A stretch of DNA of 64,000 nucleotides from Escherichia coli (lineage in GTDB: Bacteria; Pseudomonadota; Gammaproteobacteria; Enterobacterales; Enterobacteriaceae). This document shows positions 24,196-58,512 of the stretch, piece by piece; positions within the stretch are counted from its first letter, which is position 1; each line of letters starts with the position of its first letter. The position numbers and the translations under genes were made by a program. Location of the stretch: NCBI RefSeq assembly GCF_003334785.1, contig NZ_QOWV01000011.1. One strand, 5' to 3'. Under the pieces are notes generated by a model. The model was given only the letters and a program-made list of their open reading frames with translations, searched no databases and was not told where the DNA came from.

Positions 24196-24516
24196 TTACT
24201 TATCAACGACCTGCCAGCCATCATCTGTTTTGACCAGCTTGACAGCCGCTGTGCGTTTTTCGTTATCGACAACAGCTGTTACATTGCATTTATAGCTTTT
24301 ATCCGATAGTTTTTCGCAGTCGTGTTTTTTGACTGATTTTAACTTCCGCAGCATGTCAGGCGTGATATCGTTTCTCGCTATGGATTTAACGATGGCATTC
24401 GTCTGCTCCACGACCTTATTCATCGCAGTGTAAATATCCTGCTCAGACGGTTCACTGGTGCAGCCGGTCAGCAAAAAAATGGACGCAATGAGTGTGGTAA
24501 ATGCATATGTTTTCAT
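24196..24516 (-). CDS. Putative lipoprotein
   Basis: Signal peptide with lipobox LLTGC. Confidence 0.55.
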   Translation of the reverse strand: MKTYAFTTLIASIFLLTGCTSEPSEQDIYTAMNKVVEQTNAIVKSIARNDITPDMLRKLKSVKKHDCEKLSDKSYKCNVTAVVDNEKRTAAVKLVKTDDGWQVVDK

Positions 24517-24542
24517 AAAATAATCCCAGACGGTAGAGTACG

Positions 24543-24941
24543 TTATTGAAAAAGGCCGGTTTTCATCTTGCTGTTGTTTTCAGAGAACGTCCACTTGCTG
24601 ACGGTTTCGCCTTTAAATTCGATTTCCAGCGTTTTGGCCTGCGTCTGTGAACCCCCGGTCAGCAGTCCAATCACGGGAATGAATGTGGTGGCATCAAACT
24701 GATTGTTGTCCATCGAATAAGTCCATTGTTCATTGCCACTATCAAGTGTAGTTTTGGTTTCGGGCTGACCGAATGCGGTAATGATTTCTGATTTCGTTGT
24801 TTTATTTTTGATGATTTTCGACTGCAGACTTTGTGATGTTTCTTTTTTTAGATGCTGGTTGCCTGATGTTGAACAGCCAGAAATAAGTAAAGAAGAAATA
24901 AAAAACACAGAAATCATGAATCTGTTCATAAGTTTTCTCAT
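24543..24941 (-). CDS. Putative lipoprotein
   Basis: Signal peptide with lipobox LISGC. Confidence 0.55.
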   Translation of the reverse strand: MRKLMNRFMISVFFISSLLISGCSTSGNQHLKKETSQSLQSKIIKNKTTKSEIITAFGQPETKTTLDSGNEQWTYSMDNNQFDATTFIPVIGLLTGGSQTQAKTLEIEFKGETVSKWTFSENNSKMKTGLFQ

Positions 24942-24978
24942 ATTAATTTTTTATGTTTGCGGTGGTGTGAAATTAATA

Positions 24979-25254
24979 TCATCTTATAAAAACAACTCTG
25001 TCTGCATATTTCTTTTTAATAATGCAGATAAGAATAATGACGCTGGCAAAAAACGTAATGACTGAGGCAGGAGTGCTGCCGGTCAATGAAAACACTAACC
25101 AGGCGAGAGCTAATGCCACGAATTGAAACAGGAATGCCACACTGAGTGGACTTTCACCATAGGCCACTTTTGCATGGCAACCTTTGCAAACCCGCACACC
25201 GTGTGGGCTTTGTGTAAAGCAGAAAGGGCAGCTAATCGTTTTATTATCCATCAT
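24979..25254 (-). CDS. Small zinc-ribbon membrane protein
   Basis: CPFC...CKGC four-Cys motif followed by two hydrophobic helices. Confidence 0.45.
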   Translation of the reverse strand: MMDNKTISCPFCFTQSPHGVRVCKGCHAKVAYGESPLSVAFLFQFVALALAWLVFSLTGSTPASVITFFASVIILICIIKKKYADRVVFIR

Positions 25255-25439
25255 GACTCCGTAGCCTGATTTAAGGTGATGTATTTTTGAACATTTTCGA
25301 TGAATGAACTGCTTTAGTAAAATTGCTTGTACCGATCGATGGATCTCAGGCGATAGGTTATATCTATTATAACTAGATTATCGATCTATAAAAACGATCG
25401 ATATCTTATTGACTATCACTAAAGTATGGACTAGCTAAC

Positions 25440-26669
25440 TTATGGTGCAGGATGGTTGTTGTTTTTAAATGATTGTTCTTTATTGGTATTTGTTGTCATG
25501 GGATGACAGGGTGTCAGAATATGTAGGTGGAGGATTTGGTGGAAAGGATGTGCAGTGGCATGTAACAGAGACATGCCTCTGCGCCTGAGAAGTGCCACAA
25601 TATGGACGAGCAATACAAGCCATGAATACAGACGACGCTGGCGGGGTATCTGACGAGCTGTATTGTGCAGATTGCTCCTGAGCTGGATGATACCCACTGT
25701 CTCCTGTTGTCTTTCCAGACGAATTTTTTCTTCAAGCTGATGGATTTTCTCCAGAATCGTTTCCCGGTTTGCAGCCTGCTCTTCAGACTCGCATGATGGC
25801 ACTGGCACTGGCACTGGCACTGGCACTGGCACTGGCGCGGTTGTAGGTTCTATTGGCCTCTGGGCTTCTTTCAGTAAACTCAGATGCTCAGGCGTAAAAT
25901 CAATCAGTGCTTGCAGGGAAGACCAGCCATATTTTTTACCCAACTGAGATGCTTTAAAGGCAATACCCTGGTATTGAAATGAAAATCCACTCATTTTACC
26001 CGTAGTGGCGATATTGGGTTTGCAGGTCACTCCTTCCTGTTCCAGTAAGCGAACAAAGGTTAGTAAATCGGGATGGTGTGTTAATGCATTGTCGAGCAGG
26101 GCCTGCAACAGTGACTTAGGGCAGGGAGCTGCTGTGCGTTCTGCCATCATCAGTTCATTACGGGAAGGCTTCCTTTTATCCTGGCGGCTACTGCCGGTTA
26201 CACCCGTAGTTTCGGTGAGGCCGTGTACTCTCTCCAGCTCACTGATAATCCGTGTGCCGATAAGATTTTCATTTTTCCCCAGGTACAGTTTTCCACCGAC
26301 CATGTTAATACGACTTGCAATGATATGAATATGCTGCCCATCCGGATCATCGTGCATGATATAGCAGCGAAGATGGGTGTCAGTGAAGCCCATTCGGGCC
26401 ATATAATCGTCAGCGAATGCTGCCCACTGTCTGTTTGACAGTTTCTCACCCTTTGGCAGGCGAAGTGAATTATGCCAGACAGGTTTGGCGACATCGGGAC
26501 GCAGCAGTCGGGTGCCTTCAAATTCACTTATAAGCTCAGCAGCAGTGCTACCCGTCATGTTGCCACCGATGACATAAGGCGTGATTTTGTGGTGAGAACC
26601 TGACTTCAGGCTATAAATAACCACACCTGTGAATTGTTTACCCCTTTTTATTTTCTGCATGCCTTTCAT
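25440..26669 (-). CDS. Mobilisation relaxase (MobA/MbeA-like)
   Basis: 409 aa; histidine-triad-like relaxase motif HDDPDGQHIHIIASR; ATGA start/stop overlap with upstream mobC-like gene. Confidence 0.7.
   Translation of the reverse strand: MKGMQKIKRGKQFTGVVIYSLKSGSHHKITPYVIGGNMTGSTAAELISEFEGTRLLRPDVAKPVWHNSLRLPKGEKLSNRQWAAFADDYMARMGFTDTHLRCYIMHDDPDGQHIHIIASRINMVGGKLYLGKNENLIGTRIISELERVHGLTETTGVTGSSRQDKRKPSRNELMMAERTAAPCPKSLLQALLDNALTHHPDLLTFVRLLEQEGVTCKPNIATTGKMSGFSFQYQGIAFKASQLGKKYGWSSLQALIDFTPEHLSLLKEAQRPIEPTTAPVPVPVPVPVPVPSCESEEQAANRETILEKIHQLEEKIRLERQQETVGIIQLRSNLHNTARQIPRQRRLYSWLVLLVHIVALLRRRGMSLLHATAHPFHQILHLHILTPCHPMTTNTNKEQSFKNNNHPAP
25798..25836. repeat. Hexanucleotide tandem repeat (ggcact) x6.5 inside relaxase gene
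   Basis: Direct read; encodes (Pro-Val)n linker PVPVPVPVPVPVP on minus strand. Confidence 0.9.
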
Positions 26670-27073
26670 GGGTCTGACTCCAGAAATGTTGAGGGAATAA
26701 GGTGATCCCTGAGAGTTTTGATTTGTCTGCGCAGGGCGAAGAGTTCTGTACGGGTCAGTTCGCTGTCAGGGCTTTTGCTGTCGAGATGACTCAACAGGTA
26801 GTTTAAATCCTGTGAAAGGCTGCCAAGTTTTATCCATGCTTCACGATTGATTTCTGGCAGAACCGGCGGGAGTTTATTCAGGGAAGCCATCCTGAGCCAT
26901 TCTCCTTTTTTATACTGACCTCTTTTACTGTCGAGAATAATTAATTCTTCTTCATTTAATCTGACACTGATGCAGTGATGTCGTATTTCATTCTCAGGAA
27001 ATTTGTCAGTATGGAATTTACCGCGTTTTGATACTCTGGTTATATCATCATCATTACTCATGTCACTGTTCAT
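26666..27073 (-). CDS. MobC/MbeC-like relaxosome accessory protein
   Basis: 135 aa; position immediately upstream of and overlapping relaxase; family assignment from composition and context, weaker than relaxase call. Confidence 0.55.
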   Translation of the reverse strand: MNSDMSNDDDITRVSKRGKFHTDKFPENEIRHHCISVRLNEEELIILDSKRGQYKKGEWLRMASLNKLPPVLPEINREAWIKLGSLSQDLNYLLSHLDSKSPDSELTRTELFALRRQIKTLRDHLIPSTFLESDP

Positions 27074-27274
27074 AGTTATCCTTTTATTTCATGTTTATTA
27101 CTACAGATAACCGATGAAATGAATAAGTCAAGTTGTTACGGGATAAATAATTTAATTATCTGGATTAAAAAAGGTATACCATTTGACAAATAGTATACCC
27201 ACGAGGACATATCAGATTAATGGTCATTAAATGAATCCTTGCAGACTAAGAAAAGGGTTGTTTACTCCAGAGTT

Positions 27275-28228
27275 TTAGAGTCTTTTTCGTACAGATGAAC
27301 GGGGGATCTCTGGCTTCATTTCTTTTAACAGGTCTTTTTTCTCTCTTGCTGCGATATAAGAAAAAATCTTATCGGAGTCAGAACGCTGTCTGAGTATATC
27401 GTCGTCCATTCGGATACCATTTCGAATGAACCATTTCACACTTTCTATGCCGGTGTAGATACCAATATGTTTATCATGATAACAATTATAAAACTGAACA
27501 TGACTGATATCGGTATATTTTTTCAGTGAGGTAAAGAAGTACTTCATGTTTTTGACATATAATGCGAAGGAACAGTGTTCAGCGATAAGGATATTACGCC
27601 CTTTTTCATGAAGCAAAGCAATTAGAGGCAAAGCCTCAGTTGAAACATGTTTAAATAATACTGGCGTGCTGTCTATTCTATCAACATGGCGTTTGAGGGC
27701 ATTAATACTGAAATCATATATCCACCACTCGTTGTCAGTCGGAAGATCCAGCACCGCTTTGCCACCATAATCTCTGTGGTTTATGTCACACCCTTTATTT
27801 ACCCAGTAATCAAAGACATCATGATCGAGGAGGTCATAAAGAAGCGTTTGTCCTTCGTTATCTGTGCTGTGGATATCAATGCCCGCGTTTATGAGGAGTT
27901 CCGCACAATCTATGGCGTAGCGCTGCCAGTGAAGACAGGACTGGCCTTTATTATTTTTGTGGTGAACGTTAATACCTGACTTTATCAATAGCCTCACTGC
28001 ACGTGGGCTTTTTCTGCTAAACAGGGCATTATTACCATAACAATCTGTATGGTTCAGCGCTATGCCTGCTTCAATCATGGCTTTTAAAGCCCCGATACTG
28101 TCGCAACCGAAAAGGGCGTTTTCACCGTGTTCATTAAGTGTGTTAATGTCAATGCCTGCAGCAATGCAATTCTGGACGTCTTTTTTAGTTTTGCTGTCAA
28201 ATAAATTATCTTCTGTATAGTTACTCAT
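27275..28228 (-). CDS. Ankyrin-repeat protein
   Basis: 317 aa; several approx 33-aa ankyrin-like repeats (..G.NALF...LI.SGI.VNH.D..G.T.L..). Confidence 0.65.
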   Translation of the reverse strand: MSNYTEDNLFDSKTKKDVQNCIAAGIDINTLNEHGENALFGCDSIGALKAMIEAGIALNHTDCYGNNALFSRKSPRAVRLLIKSGINVHHKNNKGQSCLHWQRYAIDCAELLINAGIDIHSTDNEGQTLLYDLLDHDVFDYWVNKGCDINHRDYGGKAVLDLPTDNEWWIYDFSINALKRHVDRIDSTPVLFKHVSTEALPLIALLHEKGRNILIAEHCSFALYVKNMKYFFTSLKKYTDISHVQFYNCYHDKHIGIYTGIESVKWFIRNGIRMDDDILRQRSDSDKIFSYIAAREKKDLLKEMKPEIPRSSVRKRL

Positions 28229-28242
28229 GGGCGTTCTCCTTT

Positions 28243-28683
28243 TTAAGCGGTCGTTTTGTGCCAGGTATTATTGTTGTATTCATATTCTTTTATCTTAATG
28301 ATCTCGTCATAGATCCGTGAAAAAGAAAACCATGAGATCTCTTTCACTTCGCCTTTTTTGTTTGTGTAAATGATATTGCAGCCACGAAAAGAAAATGACT
28401 GATAGAAAGTATCGTGATTCTCCTCTTTAAGAAAACGGGTAAAAGCTTTTATGGTGTCTTTTTTTTCCATGCTATAAGAGAAAAAGGTATGGATAGCAAA
28501 TATGGTCAGAATATTTCTTTCCGTCACCATATGTCTGGAAAAATAATTAAGATAAAAAACATGATCTTCAATGCTATTTTTACAGAATATTGAAAAGTGA
28601 GGGTTATACAGACGGTAGAGATCTGTATTCTTTTTTGTTTTAGATAGGTAACTTGTCAGGGTTGAATAGTTTTGTTTTTTCAT
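28243..28683 (-). CDS. Hypothetical protein (operon with ankyrin gene)
   Basis: 146 aa ORF 15 nt downstream of ankyrin gene. Confidence 0.45.
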   Translation of the reverse strand: MKKQNYSTLTSYLSKTKKNTDLYRLYNPHFSIFCKNSIEDHVFYLNYFSRHMVTERNILTIFAIHTFFSYSMEKKDTIKAFTRFLKEENHDTFYQSFSFRGCNIIYTNKKGEVKEISWFSFSRIYDEIIKIKEYEYNNNTWHKTTA

Positions 28684-28685
28684 TT

Positions 28686-29042
28686 TTATTCTCCTTTATT
28701 ATTTTGATGAAATGAATGTATATTATCAAATAAATAAAAATCAAATTTATTTTTAATAATAAAAAATAAGCAAGCGTTTTCTTTTGAATAAACTAATTTA
28801 ATGTGATGTTTTATATAAATAAATTCATAGTTTGCAAAAAGTGCTATTTTTATTTCATGGTTGATTGATGGGCGTTTTTCCCCATTGCTTAGGGGGAAAT
28901 ATATCCCATTAATATTAAATGTTTGAAGTGAATCGTATTTTAGCAGGGGAATATTATATCTTTTACTTCTGTTTTGATTTTCAACTTTGTGTGTGAGACA
29001 CAATATGTGATAGTGTTGTGATAATCGTAAGTATCCTGCCAA
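28686..29042 (-). CDS. Hypothetical protein (operon with ankyrin gene)
   Basis: 118 aa ORF 3 nt downstream of previous. Confidence 0.4.
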   Translation of the reverse strand: MAGYLRLSQHYHILCLTHKVENQNRSKRYNIPLLKYDSLQTFNINGIYFPLSNGEKRPSINHEIKIALFANYEFIYIKHHIKLVYSKENACLFFIIKNKFDFYLFDNIHSFHQNNKGE

Positions 29043-29264
29043 AACGAATCATTCACTTTAAACCTTTACTGACATATTGGTTATATATTCTGAGAAATTT
29101 ATAGTGCAAAAGGCTCGGTGTGCAGACTTACGCCAGCCCAATCAAGCCGTAGTGCTTTAGTTTTGGGGCTTAGGTATGGTGGAAAAAAGCGACTCGTTAA
29201 GCTTACTGAGCTCTATGTATTTCAGGAGTCGGTCAGTAAGTTAACGATCCAAGAGGCTCATCAA

Positions 29265-29537
29265 TCATAAGAGATGTATCAATCTTGCGAGACTCTCACG
29301 GATTTTATCGCCGTCATAAATAGCAATCTCTTCAATATTGTTACCAATGAAAGTTTCAGCTGCCTGGATGGCTATCAGTTCAGACATACCAACGTTATCA
29401 GCCAGCTGGCGTGCTGCAATGACCTTGCTTTCAAGAGTTAGGATGACCGGCCTGTAGCCTGCGCGTTTGATTTTGATACAGTGTGAAATCAATTTCTCCA
29501 TAGGTGCGGTGGTCACTTGGAATGCAGTCGTACCCAC
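29265..29537 (-). CDS. Hypothetical protein, possibly gene remnant
   Basis: 90 aa ORF; flanking 29540-29770 has coding-like composition without intact frame. Confidence 0.3.
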   Translation of the reverse strand: MGTTAFQVTTAPMEKLISHCIKIKRAGYRPVILTLESKVIAARQLADNVGMSELIAIQAAETFIGNNIEEIAIYDGDKIRESLARLIHLL

Positions 29538-30376
29538 CTGAAAGGCCCCTTCACGGTCAATGTGTGGATCATTAGCATTGGCCCTGCGACTACTGATTTT
29601 AACATCTAGGGAAACGTAGCTGATGTTTGGCTTCGATAAGATTCTGTAGCACCGCCTCAGTGGGGTTGTCAGAACATTCCGCTGCCGCCTTAAGAATATC
29701 GCTTACTAGAGATGAAACTGGTTGATTGTAATCCCGGTCGACCGTTACTCTATGTTTATCCGGATAATTTTGGCGTACACATTAAGTGAAGAAAACTTCA
29801 AAGTGATTTGAAACAGATGTTGTATTCACTGGCTCATTTACATTAACTTGAGTGTTGTTCAGCACATGTTGAAACGCAGCTGTAAGGAAGATGATACAGC
29901 CAAGATGTATCCTTCATTATGGGGATTGGCGCGATGACCACCACGGCTTAGCCCGATTGATTATTTGGAAATTGATTAGAATGCATAATCTGGGCTGAGC
30001 TCACTTAAAGTCTCTAATGTTTGACTTGGAGATTTGGGGGGCAGTGGCTTTCAGTTTTGTTAACTCTAACATCTGGTTTACGTTCCTTTTGGAACAAGAA
30101 GCAGAGGTCTGCTAAGTAATGGTTGTACTGCTTGTGATAGGTATGACTGCATGTTCAGCGAGCAAGAATGGCTTAAAAGTTCTGTTACTGAGCACCCCAT
30201 GAAGTTAGAACGATGTCATAACGTGCACGTAACCGTTGAACTGTTCTCTTACAGATAATCTCTACATAGCTATTATTGCTTAGGCGGTAGCTATGTAGAT
30301 GGTTTTTGTAATATTATATTAAAAGTTCATACAGCGACTATAGCATCATTGCGAAAAATATCAGGAGGTGAGTTTA

Positions 30377-32482
30377 ATGTTACGAAAAAGCAAACTTACA
30401 GAGATATATAAAAGGTTTGGTTTTACTGAAGAAAATACAGGTAACGAAAGTATTGCTGTATATTCTATTAAAACAGGGCACTACCATAACGCGGACATAC
30501 TTCCACTAAATAATGAGGTTAATGTAAATCAAACCTTTGAAGAATATAGGCAGTTAGGTTATGCATGTCAAATTAAAAAATATCAGTCTTATGAAGAAGC
30601 ACATAAGGAATTATTTAATGGCTTCTTTAGCGTCGATTCAACTAAAGAAAGGTTGATTAAAGATTATAATACTTTCACAGATTCAATTGTAAAAATTCAC
30701 TCACCTACTGCAACTTATTCCTACATAAATTCAAAATATTACTTAAATGGTGTTATTGGCGAAGCTAATGTTGTTACGGAAATATTAGAGAGAATACAAC
30801 ATAGGCGTCCAATTCTGTTTTTGATTGAGGCTGCAGCCGGTTTTGGAAAGACTTGCACGGCGTATGAATTATTGAGGGAGATTATAGTTAACAATATAGG
30901 GAAAATACCATTATTTTCAGAACTATCAAGGAATAGGCAAGCAAAAATATTCAGGTATGTACTATTAGATGAAATTGATAGAAGTTTTCCTTTGTTAAGC
31001 TCAGCCTTAGTAAGGAATGAAATAAGAGCAGGAAATGTACCAGTTATACTTGACGGGTTTGATGAACTATTGCATGAAAGTACAAACGGAATTGAAAATA
31101 ATTATGAAAAAACAGAGCCAATGCTGGAAACAATAAGTGAGCTTCTAACTGATAGTGCAAAAGTGGTTTTGACAACTCGAAGAACAGCTATATTTGACGG
31201 AGATGAATTCCATCAGTGGATAGCATCACATCAAGAAGATTTTGATGTGATAAGAATAAGAATTCATGAACCACAAATTGAAGACTGGCTTCCAGGTCAA
31301 CGTTTAGATGAAATTTCATCGACAGGATTTCCTCTTAACAAATTATCAAACCCTGTACTGCTATCATTTCTAAGATGCATCGACGACACCGACTTTAATA
31401 AAGTTATAAGCGACCCAACAACTATAGTGAGGAAGTATTTTGATTCAATGCTTGAGCGAGAAAGAAAAAGACAAGATTTATTAATGTCTATTGAAGATCA
31501 ATATACTATACTAAAAATAATAGCTGACGACATGGTCGAGGGTAACTACACATCTGAGTCTAGAGAGTATATATCGTTAGTCATAACTGAAAAGAATCAA
31601 CAACTCTTGGAGGCTACAAGAAAGCTTTATACTGTAGATGAAAGACCAACTACTGACGAATTAGTTAATAAATTAGCATCGCATGCTCTATTAGATCGGT
31701 CAGGCTCAGAAAACCAAGGTATTGGATTTGTTAATGAATTTGTTCTTGGTAATTTTGTTTCTGAAAATATTATTAATGATAAGTCAAATGAATGGATTGG
31801 TGATAAACGTTTTATAGAACCAGCAGTGCAATCTTATATGCCGAGGATCGATGATGAAAAAGAATTACTTTGGCATAGCTTAGAGTTTGCTTTATATTTT
31901 ATGTCAGGTAATGATAAAATCCTTTATAGTCATTTGCTTATAGGAAAAGTTCCATTAGATTTAAAAAATGATAGTGTTGAGCAATTGTCTATATCAAAAC
32001 TTTCTTTAGGCGATATAAATATAATACATGATACTATCTTTGTTGATTGTTCGTTTTTTAGCAGCATATTTACCTGTGGTAATTATAAAAACGTTACATT
32101 CGTGAACTGTTCTTTTATAGATTGTAGTTTTAACGAATTAAGTGGTAGGGAAGATATTTATTTTTTGGGATGTGAATGTGACAATGATGCTATTAATAAA
32201 AAATCTGTCGAGATAAACAGTGAAAATGATCACGATATTACAGATTGTGATATTTACATCTTAGAGAAGTTCTGTCCCAGAGGGAGTGTTAGCTATCATA
32301 AGCATCGGCCTATAAAAGGCTTATGTTCTAACAACAATCAATTTCAGTTAAGTGAAATACTCCATTCTTTAGATAAATTGAGGAAAGACGGTCTTTTACT
32401 TACGCCAGACAAGCGTTCGTTCCTTGAACTTAACATGGCAAGAATATCAGAGATTAAAGCAATTCTTGGGAGGAATTTCTGA
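30377..32482 (+). CDS. NACHT/STAND-type P-loop NTPase with C-terminal pentapeptide repeats
   Basis: Start at ATG 30377 with aggagg RBS; Walker A AAAGFGKT; NACHT-style Walker B VILDGFDEL; C-terminal run FVDCSF-FSSIF-TCGNY-KNVTF-VNCSF-IDCSF. Confidence 0.7.
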   Translation: MLRKSKLTEIYKRFGFTEENTGNESIAVYSIKTGHYHNADILPLNNEVNVNQTFEEYRQLGYACQIKKYQSYEEAHKELFNGFFSVDSTKERLIKDYNTFTDSIVKIHSPTATYSYINSKYYLNGVIGEANVVTEILERIQHRRPILFLIEAAAGFGKTCTAYELLREIIVNNIGKIPLFSELSRNRQAKIFRYVLLDEIDRSFPLLSSALVRNEIRAGNVPVILDGFDELLHESTNGIENNYEKTEPMLETISELLTDSAKVVLTTRRTAIFDGDEFHQWIASHQEDFDVIRIRIHEPQIEDWLPGQRLDEISSTGFPLNKLSNPVLLSFLRCIDDTDFNKVISDPTTIVRKYFDSMLERERKRQDLLMSIEDQYTILKIIADDMVEGNYTSESREYISLVITEKNQQLLEATRKLYTVDERPTTDELVNKLASHALLDRSGSENQGIGFVNEFVLGNFVSENIINDKSNEWIGDKRFIEPAVQSYMPRIDDEKELLWHSLEFALYFMSGNDKILYSHLLIGKVPLDLKNDSVEQLSISKLSLGDINIIHDTIFVDCSFFSSIFTCGNYKNVTFVNCSFIDCSFNELSGREDIYFLGCECDNDAINKKSVEINSENDHDITDCDIYILEKFCPRGSVSYHKHRPIKGLCSNNNQFQLSEILHSLDKLRKDGLLLTPDKRSFLELNMARISEIKAILGRNF

Positions 32483-33387
32483 TGTATAACGGGAATGAAT
32501 TGCGAATTATTCAAAGTTTGCAAAAAGATATAGAAGATGAACTTAATCGTATTGGATTACTTTATCGTTTTTTTTCGAGGACAAAATCAGAAAGCTCAAT
32601 AATTAAGAAATATGAAAAAGAGCCTAATAAATACTCAGAGGATGGTAAAAAAATTCAAGACTTATTTGGGGTTAGGATAATATTATATTTTCCTGATGAT
32701 TTATTTATTGCTCAAAAAACACTGGAGAAATTATTCGAAATTGAATCTAAAACCGTAGACGAAACCACGGCTAATCTCTTTGCGGCAACTCGATGCAATT
32801 ACGTCTTTAAGTTACCAGAAGTATTATCAAATGATAGTGTCTTATTAAAGAAATATTCTTATATTGATACTACTTTTGAAGTCCAATTTAGAACTATTTT
32901 ATCTGAAGGATGGCATGAAGTTGAGCATGATCTACGCTATAAGTGCAAAGAGGATTGGGTTGAGCATAATGACCTTAGTCGCGCGCTGAATGGAATTTAC
33001 GCCTCTTTGGAAACATCTGATTGGGGAATAATGAAGTTATTTGAGGATTTAGCATATAGAAATTATAAGTCAAGCGCATGGTCCGCTATGCTAAGAAATA
33101 AATTAAGATTGAGAATGGACGATAAGCTTGATGAAAAGATAATTTCAATAATTAATGAGAAAGAGCTTGGTAAAAAGTTTTATAGAATTGACAGAGATCG
33201 TTTGTTATCGTTAATGTTAGATTATAATATTGATATACCAATTAATCTTAATAATATAATTTACCTTTGTAATTATTTTTTCATAAAATCTACGGAGCTT
33301 CAGGATATAGCCCCTGCTTTAATAATGAAAAAGCTTACAGATGCTGATGAAAAATTCAATAAAAATACTATTTTAGCATCTAAATAA
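32482..33387 (+). CDS. RelA/SpoT-domain nucleotidyltransferase (alarmone-synthetase / toxSAS-like)
   Basis: Start overlaps upstream stop (TGATG); motifs FSRTKSESSIIKKYEK, DLFGVRIILYFPDD and EVQFRTILSEGWHEVEHD correspond to the RelA/SpoT synthetase fold (G/RxKS..S, D..G.RII, ExQIRT). Confidence 0.65.
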   Translation: MYNGNELRIIQSLQKDIEDELNRIGLLYRFFSRTKSESSIIKKYEKEPNKYSEDGKKIQDLFGVRIILYFPDDLFIAQKTLEKLFEIESKTVDETTANLFAATRCNYVFKLPEVLSNDSVLLKKYSYIDTTFEVQFRTILSEGWHEVEHDLRYKCKEDWVEHNDLSRALNGIYASLETSDWGIMKLFEDLAYRNYKSSAWSAMLRNKLRLRMDDKLDEKIISIINEKELGKKFYRIDRDRLLSLMLDYNIDIPINLNNIIYLCNYFFIKSTELQDIAPALIMKKLTDADEKFNKNTILASK

Positions 33388-33405
33388 TAACTATCTCCGG
33401 CTATT

Positions 33406-33433
33406 AAGTAGGCCTTGTATTTTAGGCCTACTT
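33406..33433. terminator. Hairpin downstream of the NTPase-RelA/SpoT pair
   Basis: Stem aagtaggcc/ggcctactt with 9-nt loop; A-run on plus side, so may serve either strand. Confidence 0.4.
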
Positions 33434-33766
33434 AAAAAGTTTCATTATGTGAAGTGATGATGATAGCAAATCTGCTATCTTTATGGTTGGATGCGAGAAA
33501 ATATTTTTATCCCGACACAACAACTGGTAATGATAGAAAATTTAAACCCAAAAATGCTACAGTAGCCTCAGCTCACAAACGGAGTATAAAGTGGCGGTTA
33601 CTCTTTAGTGGGAATACTGTAGATAGTTGATAAACTGGGCTGGATTTTCTTTTCTAACCGAAGGGAAGAAAAGCAAGGGGAACCCAAAGAAACAAGCGCA
33701 GCGGCTTCGTAGGGTTAGCCCTTGCTTCTTTTATAATTGGCATTATTCATTCAAGAACAATAGGAT

Positions 33767-33786
33767 CTTCGCTTGTACAAGCGAAG
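33767..33786. promoter_or_regulatory. Perfect 20-bp palindrome cttcgcttgtacaagcgaag
   Basis: Direct read; lies in 1-kb ORF-free AT-rich spacer downstream of ParB-like genes. Confidence 0.5.
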
Positions 33787-39453: not shown

Positions 39454-39816
39454 TGGTGGAGCTGGCGGGAGTTGAACCCGCGTCCGAAATTCCTACATCC
39501 TCGGTACTACATGCTTAGTCAGTCTTTACATTCGCTTGCCAGCTGCGGACGGACACGCCACTAACAAACTAGCCTGATTAAGTTTTAACGCTTCAACCCC
39601 AGGCAGGGCTTCCACGCGATCTCTTTTGGGTTTGACCTCTCTTGATCCCCGTCCTAAGAGCGGAGGCTAGGGAGAGAGGGCTCTAAGCAGGTTATTAAGC
39701 TGCTAAAGCGTAGTTTTCGTCGTTTGCGACTATTTTTTGCGGCTTTTTACGAGGCCAACCGCCCCTCGGCATGCACCTTGGGTTTCGCAAATCCCGTCGA
39801 ATCCAGAATCAGCCCC
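39454..39816 (-). ncRNA. ssrA: tmRNA (SsrA)
   Basis: 363 nt; minus-strand sense begins ggggctgattctggattcgacggg and ends ...gggttcaactcccgccagctccacca; tag-encoding region present. Confidence 0.95.
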
Positions 39817-41401: not shown

Positions 41402-41462
41402 CAGACAGAAAAAAGGTGCTCATTGAGCACCTTTTTTAACGTCTTTGAGAGCAACTTTATTA

Positions 41463-56465: not shown

Positions 56466-56502
56466 CCAGTGCCGGATGATTCACATCATCCGGCACCTTT
56501 TC
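56466..56502. terminator. Bidirectional terminator between convergent tyrA and pheA
   Basis: Hairpin gtgccggatga-ttcaca-tcatccggcac with T-runs on both sides. Confidence 0.7.
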
Positions 56503-58475: not shown

Positions 58476-58512
58476 AATAAAAAAACGGCAGCTCAAGGGC
58501 TGCCGTTTTGTG
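58476..58512 (-). terminator. bamD terminator
   Basis: Hairpin cggcagc-tcaagg-gctgccg with T-runs. Confidence 0.6.

Follow-up and report, generated by a model that had tools for sequence, protein, structure and literature searches.

The window, by which we mean the whole 64,000-nt stretch of DNA analysed, is E. coli chromosome, and the 2.1 kb around the palindrome studied here are 100% identical to several complete E. coli genomes, always at a chromosomal position. The palindrome lies in an island that adjoins ssrA (tmRNA, 39454-39816) and carries genes for an integrase, a serine recombinase, two ParB-like proteins, NACHT and RelA/SpoT proteins, IS3, DUF4928 and an ankyrin protein. On the minus strand, the ankyrin gene is followed by a mobC-like gene, a relaxase gene and then three small membrane or lipoprotein genes (Table 1). 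Since no mating-pore genes were found in the island, it is an integrative mobilisable element carrying a relaxase. E. coli MFDS1001074 and VTB96935v are examples of strains that have this island. A direct repeat of the ssrA 3' end that would delimit the island was sought, and none of at least 12 nt was found. The relaxase contains a MobA/VirD2 nuclease domain (PF03432, E 3.5e-22), shows weak NCBIfam matches to MobB and TraI/MobA(P) relaxases, and is 43% identical to the IncQ-3 relaxase in its N-terminal domain. The MobC-like protein is 41% identical to the annotated MobC of pWES-1 (IncQ-3; E 6e-20), and both gene calls of a first-pass annotation of this DNA were thus right. HC[VI]SVRLN, the predicted DNA-reading strand of MobC, was invariant across the compared lineages. 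The -35 box of mobC, TTGACT, was likewise common to all lineages; the -10 box, TATCTG, is weak, and a consensus promoter scan did not call the mobC promoter. Within the relaxase gene, a perfect hexanucleotide repeat (TGGCAC x 6.7, 25797-25836) encodes a (PV)n linker whose length differs both from strain to strain and from lineage to lineage. A (PA)n run of about 30 units was seen in one E. coli relative, and several near-identical E. coli relaxase matches align as two pieces across the repeat.

Table 1 Features of the island, in window positions; a vertical bar within a motif marks a nick.
Feature	Position	Strand	Details
Element B, fixed-spacing array	25293..25415	minus	core ATCGATCGGTACAA 25327-25340; GATAG/CTAT(T) 25352-25368; TATCGATC/GATCGATA 25379-25403
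Element B segment		minus	CCATCGATCGGTACAAGCAATTTTAC
MOBP-type relaxase	25440..26669	minus	409 aa
mobC-like relaxosome accessory protein	26666..27073	minus	ribbon-helix-helix type, 135 aa
mobC promoter (predicted)	27094..27121	minus	-35 TTGACT 27121-27116; -10 TATCTG 27099-27094; spacer 16 nt
Run of six T (U)	27167..27172	minus	directly 3' of the hairpin
Terminator/insulator stem-loop (proposed)	27173..27199	minus	13-bp hairpin, one G.U pair
Ankyrin-repeat cargo gene	27275..28228	minus	co-directional with mobC; stop codon 75 nt upstream of the hairpin
Element A, probable oriT	33657..33727	plus	hairpin and GTTAGCCCTTG|C
Parts of element A		plus	ACCGAAGGG 33657-33665; outer stem GCAAGGGG/CCCTTGC; inner inverted repeat AACCC...GGGTT 33681-33716
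Nick-region homologue of element A	33724|33725 (predicted nick)	plus	AGCCCTTG|C, then TT
Element A segment around the predicted nick		plus	GCTTCGTAGGGTTAGCCCTTGCTTCT

The repeat upstream of mobC reads exactly as the first-pass annotation had written it, with the components GGTATACC (27173-27180), ATTTGACAAAT (27181-27191) and AGTATACCC (27192-27200), and is better described as one inverted repeat, a 27-bp near-perfect palindrome at 27173-27199. Its two arms (27173-27185 and 27187-27199) are 13 nt each, complementary at 12 of 13 positions and separated by a single central nucleotide, and within each of them GTATAC forms a 6-bp palindrome of its own, a possible half-site for a protein. The ATG of the mobC-like gene lies 100-126 nt downstream of the palindrome, in keeping with the distance of about 100 bp given earlier. 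GGTATACC occurs twice in the window (0.36 expected), and inverted repeats of the palindrome's quality, defined by 13-nt arms with at most one mismatch and a loop of at most 5, occur at five sites in the window against 0.63 per first-order Markov simulation; the palindrome is therefore non-random, yet neither unique nor exceptional within the window. The four other repeats of equal quality are located at 41408-41438, 56468-56497, 10379-10406 and 58482-58509, the first of which (41409-41437; AAAAAAGGTGCTCA / TGAGCACCTTTTTT) resembles a bidirectional terminator.

A consensus scan of the minus strand scored the palindrome as terminator-like, with 13 pairs, a loop of 3 and the tail TTTTTTAATCC. The minus-strand RNA folded with -13.6 kcal/mol (z -4.6), and none of 200 shuffled sequences was as stable, whereas the plus-strand fold of the palindrome reached only -8.2 kcal/mol. 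The minus-strand fold is the stronger because the single imperfection of the repeat can pair as G.U there but becomes C.A on the plus strand. The hairpin is located about 45 nt before the -35 box of mobC. Against a terminator, the stem is A+T-rich, and its three G-C pairs out of 13 are the minimum that the scan accepts.

The palindrome was then compared across E. coli variants, one Salmonella contig and 49 loci taken from one genome per species. It was unchanged only in the closest mobC lineage, consisting of the window and four loci (L008, L010, L012 and L049) from Phytobacter, Pseudocitrobacter, Citrobacter and Superficieibacter, and it was missing from the other loci with the relaxase and MobC, whereas an oriT would be expected in all of them. 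All 27 nt were identical across these four other genera and the neighbouring bases varied, so that different flanks accompany the hairpin among the closest relatives (e.g. AATCCAGAT, AACCTAACC and AACCCAACC); no conserved nick-like flank was found beside it on either strand in this group. In two further lineages (L002 and L003; MobC 72-81% and relaxase 71-88% identical), a different hairpin sequence was found at the same position, which suggests that structure rather than sequence is kept there. A BLAST search of the palindrome region against 72,556 plasmid records gave no match, and neither did an Rfam search (E <= 1) of window positions 24000-28500. The best-conserved 12-mer upstream of mobC, found in 14 of 40 loci, is part of element A and not of the palindrome.

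These data bear on the proposal of the first-pass annotation that either of two repeats in this region could be an oriT/nic region. If the palindrome served the island as the inverted repeat of an oriT, a nick by the relaxase would be expected a few bases away, and the position of the palindrome upstream of mobC is indeed the usual place of an oriT; moreover, the hairpin of the probable oriT described below occupies exactly this position in many related islands. The palindrome is, however, specific to one lineage and not conserved among relatives of the relaxase, its flanks are unconserved on both strands, and it is without a match in the plasmid records. The comparison with known oriT families, which the annotation had named as a check, likewise showed no similarity between the palindrome and the core GTTA[GC][CA]CCTTG|C that is common to IncQ-3 plasmids, Pseudomonas plasmids and islands, and an intact copy of this core is located elsewhere, at 33712-33725 within the IncQ-3 oriT-core homologue (33657-33727). 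We therefore regard an oriT at the palindrome as very improbable. Two nick candidates modelled on known plasmids were also rejected: an RP4-like AATCCAG|A just 3' of the palindrome on the minus strand is unconserved even in the closest relatives, and CCATCCTG|CACC at the relaxase 3' end (25443-25455), resembling an RP4/R64-type nick, is coding sequence and is found in the closest lineage only.

Comparison of hairpins with the orientation of the upstream gene was restricted to islands in which element A is not adjacent to mobC. Where the upstream gene is co-directional with mobC, a strong hairpin was present just upstream of the -35 box in all five independent lineages (-11.3 to -15.6 kcal/mol), with unrelated sequences and in most cases a T-rich tail, although the hairpin of L003 has no T-rich tail and that of L014 a poor one, which speaks against a terminator. 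Where the upstream gene is divergent, none of five lineages had a strong hairpin (-2.8 to -6.5 kcal/mol). This pattern is as a terminator or insulator predicts and unlike that of an oriT or a MobC site, and we regard this comparison as decisive. With the sequence, fold, strand asymmetry, position and comparative pattern of the palindrome in hand, we infer that transcription actually terminates at the hairpin. Rather than an oriT, the palindrome is probably a Rho-independent terminator, or an insulator, that acts on minus-strand transcription. Cargo transcripts ending with the ankyrin gene would fold into the 13-bp hairpin followed by UUUUUU and would end about 45 nt short of the -35 box that serves mobC and the relaxase gene. 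The mobilisation operon would in this way retain control of its own expression, shielded from cargo transcription.

In Phytobacter, Pseudocitrobacter, Citrobacter and Superficieibacter the identity of the ankyrin protein falls to about 63%, and yet the hairpin is unchanged. The hairpin thus appears to travel with the mobC promoter region and not with the upstream gene, which would fit a regulatory site too. A dimeric or tetrameric regulator, either MobC or an HTH protein of the island, might bind the two GTATAC half-sites, which have a centre-to-centre distance of 19 bp, and control the mobC promoter. Such an operator is favoured by the presence, shortly before a promoter, of two units that are each symmetric in themselves, and by their conservation with the mobC promoter lineage and not with the ankyrin gene; the weak -10 box makes an activator conceivable. 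On the other hand, HC[VI]SVRLN is invariant across lineages with unrelated palindromes, and no co-variation of the site with the DNA-reading residues was observed, which argues against the palindrome as a MobC-specific site. In addition, all 27 bp are self-complementary, including the central ATTTG-A-CAAAT that two half-sites do not need, hairpins were found only where the upstream gene is co-directional, and a distance of 45-75 nt from the site to the downstream -35 box is too great for simple repression. Taken together, the operator suggested in the first-pass annotation is unlikely at the palindrome, where the sequence changes and the MobC strand does not; it is conceivable at the second repeat, element B, in view of its conserved array and invariant short repeats.

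The palindrome could also be a functionless scar left by the recombination that inserted cargo between oriT and mobC. What lies between element A and mobC is a variable block of cargo, and the DNA after element A bears a weak likeness to that after the palindrome (AATCCAGCC; TATCTACAGTA versus TATCTGTAGTA), as a scar might leave. This origin is hard to reconcile with 27 nt that are identical across four other genera while their neighbours vary, with a fold far beyond that of shuffled sequences, and with analogous hairpins that arise independently and repeatedly, and we give it little credence. The terminator or insulator reading is kept in what follows, and the palindrome is most likely an ordinary terminator-like hairpin.

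The IncQ-3 core homologue, element A, lies between the ParB genes and the NACHT and RelA/SpoT cargo, 6.6 kb from mobC. The GTTAGCCCTTGCT of element A is identical to the IncQ-3 sequence (GTTACACCTTGCT) at 11 of 13 positions, and 8 nt separate the end of the inner inverted repeat from the predicted nick. The inner stem is not the same in all sequences compared, but its two arms are complementary in each. Furthermore, the nick region is complementary to a segment 5' of the repeat and forms with it a covarying outer stem, with compensatory changes (A-U in 16, C-G in 3 and G-C in 1 sequences). In many related islands, a hairpin GCAAGGGCTAAC...CCTTGC, followed by T-rich DNA and CCCTTCGGTTGAAAAA, is found directly upstream of the mobC promoter. 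The same element precedes mobC as GCCAGGGCTAAC...CCTGGC in a Pseudomonas plasmid whose relaxase is 50% identical as GCAAGGTGTAAC in the IncQ-3 plasmids pBRST7.6 and pWES-1, and as GCGAGGTGTAAC...CCTCGC in a Komagataeibacter plasmid. In contrast to the hairpins that are confined to particular lineages, element A occurs with upstream genes of either orientation. On grounds of homology, we consider it probable that element A is the cognate oriT of the island. A nick on its plus strand would send the ParB/integrase side first and the mob genes last, and transfer of the mob genes last is the usual arrangement in IncP and IncW systems. According to a survey of IncQ-3 plasmids, all 29 of them share a putative 12-bp oriT region, TTACACCTTGCT (PMC7557826). 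This sequence is the reverse complement of the arm of the element A hairpin, and the IncQ-3 oriT core is itself a prediction based on homology.

In many related islands and plasmids element A is adjacent to mobC (about 110-190 nt), which is not the case in the window; the distance is 0.1-3 kb in other lineages, and the 6.6 kb of the window contain cargo genes. Given the identities of MobC (41%) and the relaxase (43%) to their IncQ-3 counterparts, the module as a whole appears to be of the IncQ-3 kind, its oriT and mobC having been separated by an insertion of about 6.6 kb of cargo. This cargo slot (27275-33650) holds the ankyrin, DUF4928, IS3 and NACHT plus RelA/SpoT genes in the window and a type I restriction-modification system in another island, L061. 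Window positions 33610-33650, after element A, weakly resemble 27090-27165, after the palindrome and including the mobC -10 region, and this likeness may be a remnant of an ancestral order of element A, promoter and mobC that was split by cargo. A perfect 20-bp palindrome, CTTCGCTTGTACAAGCGAAG (33767-33786), lies 40 nt from element A and is kept only in the window and in L005; a relationship to element B through GTACAAGCG, which it has in common with some element B cores, was set aside as probable coincidence. In L023-L045, where element A is adjacent to mobC, a palindrome AAGCATAAGGAATATGCTT (e.g. L026, 3560-3590) is situated between a strong promoter (TTGACA-16-TATAAA) and the mobC start, and is a candidate autoregulatory operator. 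The window lineage has no AAGCATAAGGAATATGCTT and a weaker -10 box (TATCTG).

Among 5,426 complete E. coli genomes, element A was present in 610 and element B in 312, and about 300 E. coli genomes have element A without element B. The island L061 (NZ_CP048376.1, 3000-12000), the sole one of these that was inspected, is without mobC, relaxase and element B, and retains the integrase, recombinase, two ParB genes and element A; it may be an oriT-only or a decayed island. The roughly twofold higher frequency of element A, together with the missing mobC and relaxase of L061, suggests that islands keeping only the oriT exist.

The second repeat cluster, noted in the first-pass annotation at 25315-25410 downstream of the relaxase gene, is present as well, with CGATCGAT at 25333-25340 and 25395-25402, and belongs to the array that we call element B. 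It also contains CGATCTAT (25382-25389), a perfect 8-nt inverted repeat TATCGATC/GATCGATA (25379-25386/25396-25403) and, in all, three GATCG repeats; ATCGATCGGTACAA is invariant, and the spacing of the array is base-exact over about 80 bp. In the mob sense, the array ATTGATCG-N8-AGATCGAT-N11-TGATAG-N7-CTATCA-N10-ATCGATCGGTACAA was gap-free in 38 of the 39 islands with enough sequence. The 12-mer CGATCGGTACAA of element B was exact in 36 of 40 loci, compared with 14 of 40 for the best 12-mer upstream of mobC, and seven E. coli and Salmonella loci share an identical 30-nt block despite relaxase identities of only 47-88%. Element B was kept across at least ten genera, with flanking genes down to 47-52% protein identity, and the gene after it differs between lineages. 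No other DNA of the mobilisation module is as conserved. Its repeat arms showed no covariation, the arms being invariant and the spacers free, which suggests sequence-specific protein binding at a fixed geometry. No sigma-70 consensus promoter was called in the array. At its relaxase-proximal edge, a plus-strand TTGACT (25411-25416) is kept in E. coli-like lineages and not in more distant ones, and could be a candidate antisense promoter directed into the relaxase 3' end. Element B was absent from the Pseudomonas, Acidithiobacillus and Gallionellales relatives (L047, L048, L050, L051 and L053) and, save for one Salmonella 3.6-kb contig, from the 72,556 plasmid records (PLSDB). A text search of the literature for its core returned only noise. 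A Xer (cer/dif-like) reading of the core was set aside: by eye, it matches the XerC arm at 8 of 11 positions, with no XerD arm.

Element B was at first favoured as the oriT for its invariance, its spacing and the repeats 5' of its core on the mob-last strand. It was demoted because element A is common to the plasmid relatives and matches the IncQ-3 core, to which element B has no similarity, and we now consider it doubtful that element B is the oriT. A further reading, which we put forward only tentatively, is that element B is an undescribed cis-acting site defining a widespread family of enterobacterial mobilisable islands. It might serve as a second oriT on the mob-sense strand or as an origin from which the excised island replicates; alternatively, with its three GATCG repeats, it might be a switch that responds to Dam methylation and to which MobC or the relaxase binds. 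Ideas for its function include an operator of the RHH-type MobC or an accessory relaxosome site, besides a Dam-sensitive switch or an excised-island origin. Element B is the only part described here that might be new, and it offers a sharply defined, testable cis element.

Comparison with known systems places these parts as follows. Like Rho-independent terminators of Enterobacteria, the hairpin at the palindrome is a stem-loop followed by a U-tract, 3' of a co-directional gene and before the next promoter; as with those terminators, lineages differ in the sequence but preserve the structure, and the G.U pair falls on the transcribed sense. It differs from them in an unusually A+T-rich stem (3 of 13 pairs G-C) and a minimal loop. 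The oriT of IncP/IncI (MOBP) plasmids such as RP4 and R64 consists of an inverted repeat, 8 nt and a nick in YATCCTG|Y. Element A has the same layout of inverted repeat, 8 nt and CCTTG|C, in an orientation that would send the mob genes last; its core sequence differs, and its covarying outer stem includes the nick region. The palindrome has none of these features. With the IncQ-3 plasmids pGNB2, pBRST7.6 and pWES-1 (PMC7557826), the island has in common the oriT-mobC-mobA module, an inverted repeat that stops 8 nt short of the predicted nick, and ACCGAAGGG on the 5' side. In contrast to these plasmids, its element A, which is not the palindrome, is 6.6 kb away from mobC with cargo between, and its relaxase has no RepB primase fusion. 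PIME islands (10.64898/2026.01.12.698999) and MOBQ4 plasmids (PMC6856555) were rejected as the family of this island on account of their different gene sets. A recent preprint defined relaxase-bearing iMOB and oriT-only iOriT islands, with 52 new families, and took as oriT regions the first intergenic region upstream of the relaxase operon (10.64898/2026.01.13.699239). The present island shares with iMOB a chromosomal position at ssrA and an integrase, a relaxase and MobC without mating-pore genes. The E. coli genomes that have element A without element B, and among them L061 without mobC and relaxase, recall the iOriT islands. Its first intergenic region, however, is the terminator region and not element A, and since cargo genes lie between the probable oriT and mobC, the first-intergenic-region rule of thumb would mis-assign the oriT of this island family.
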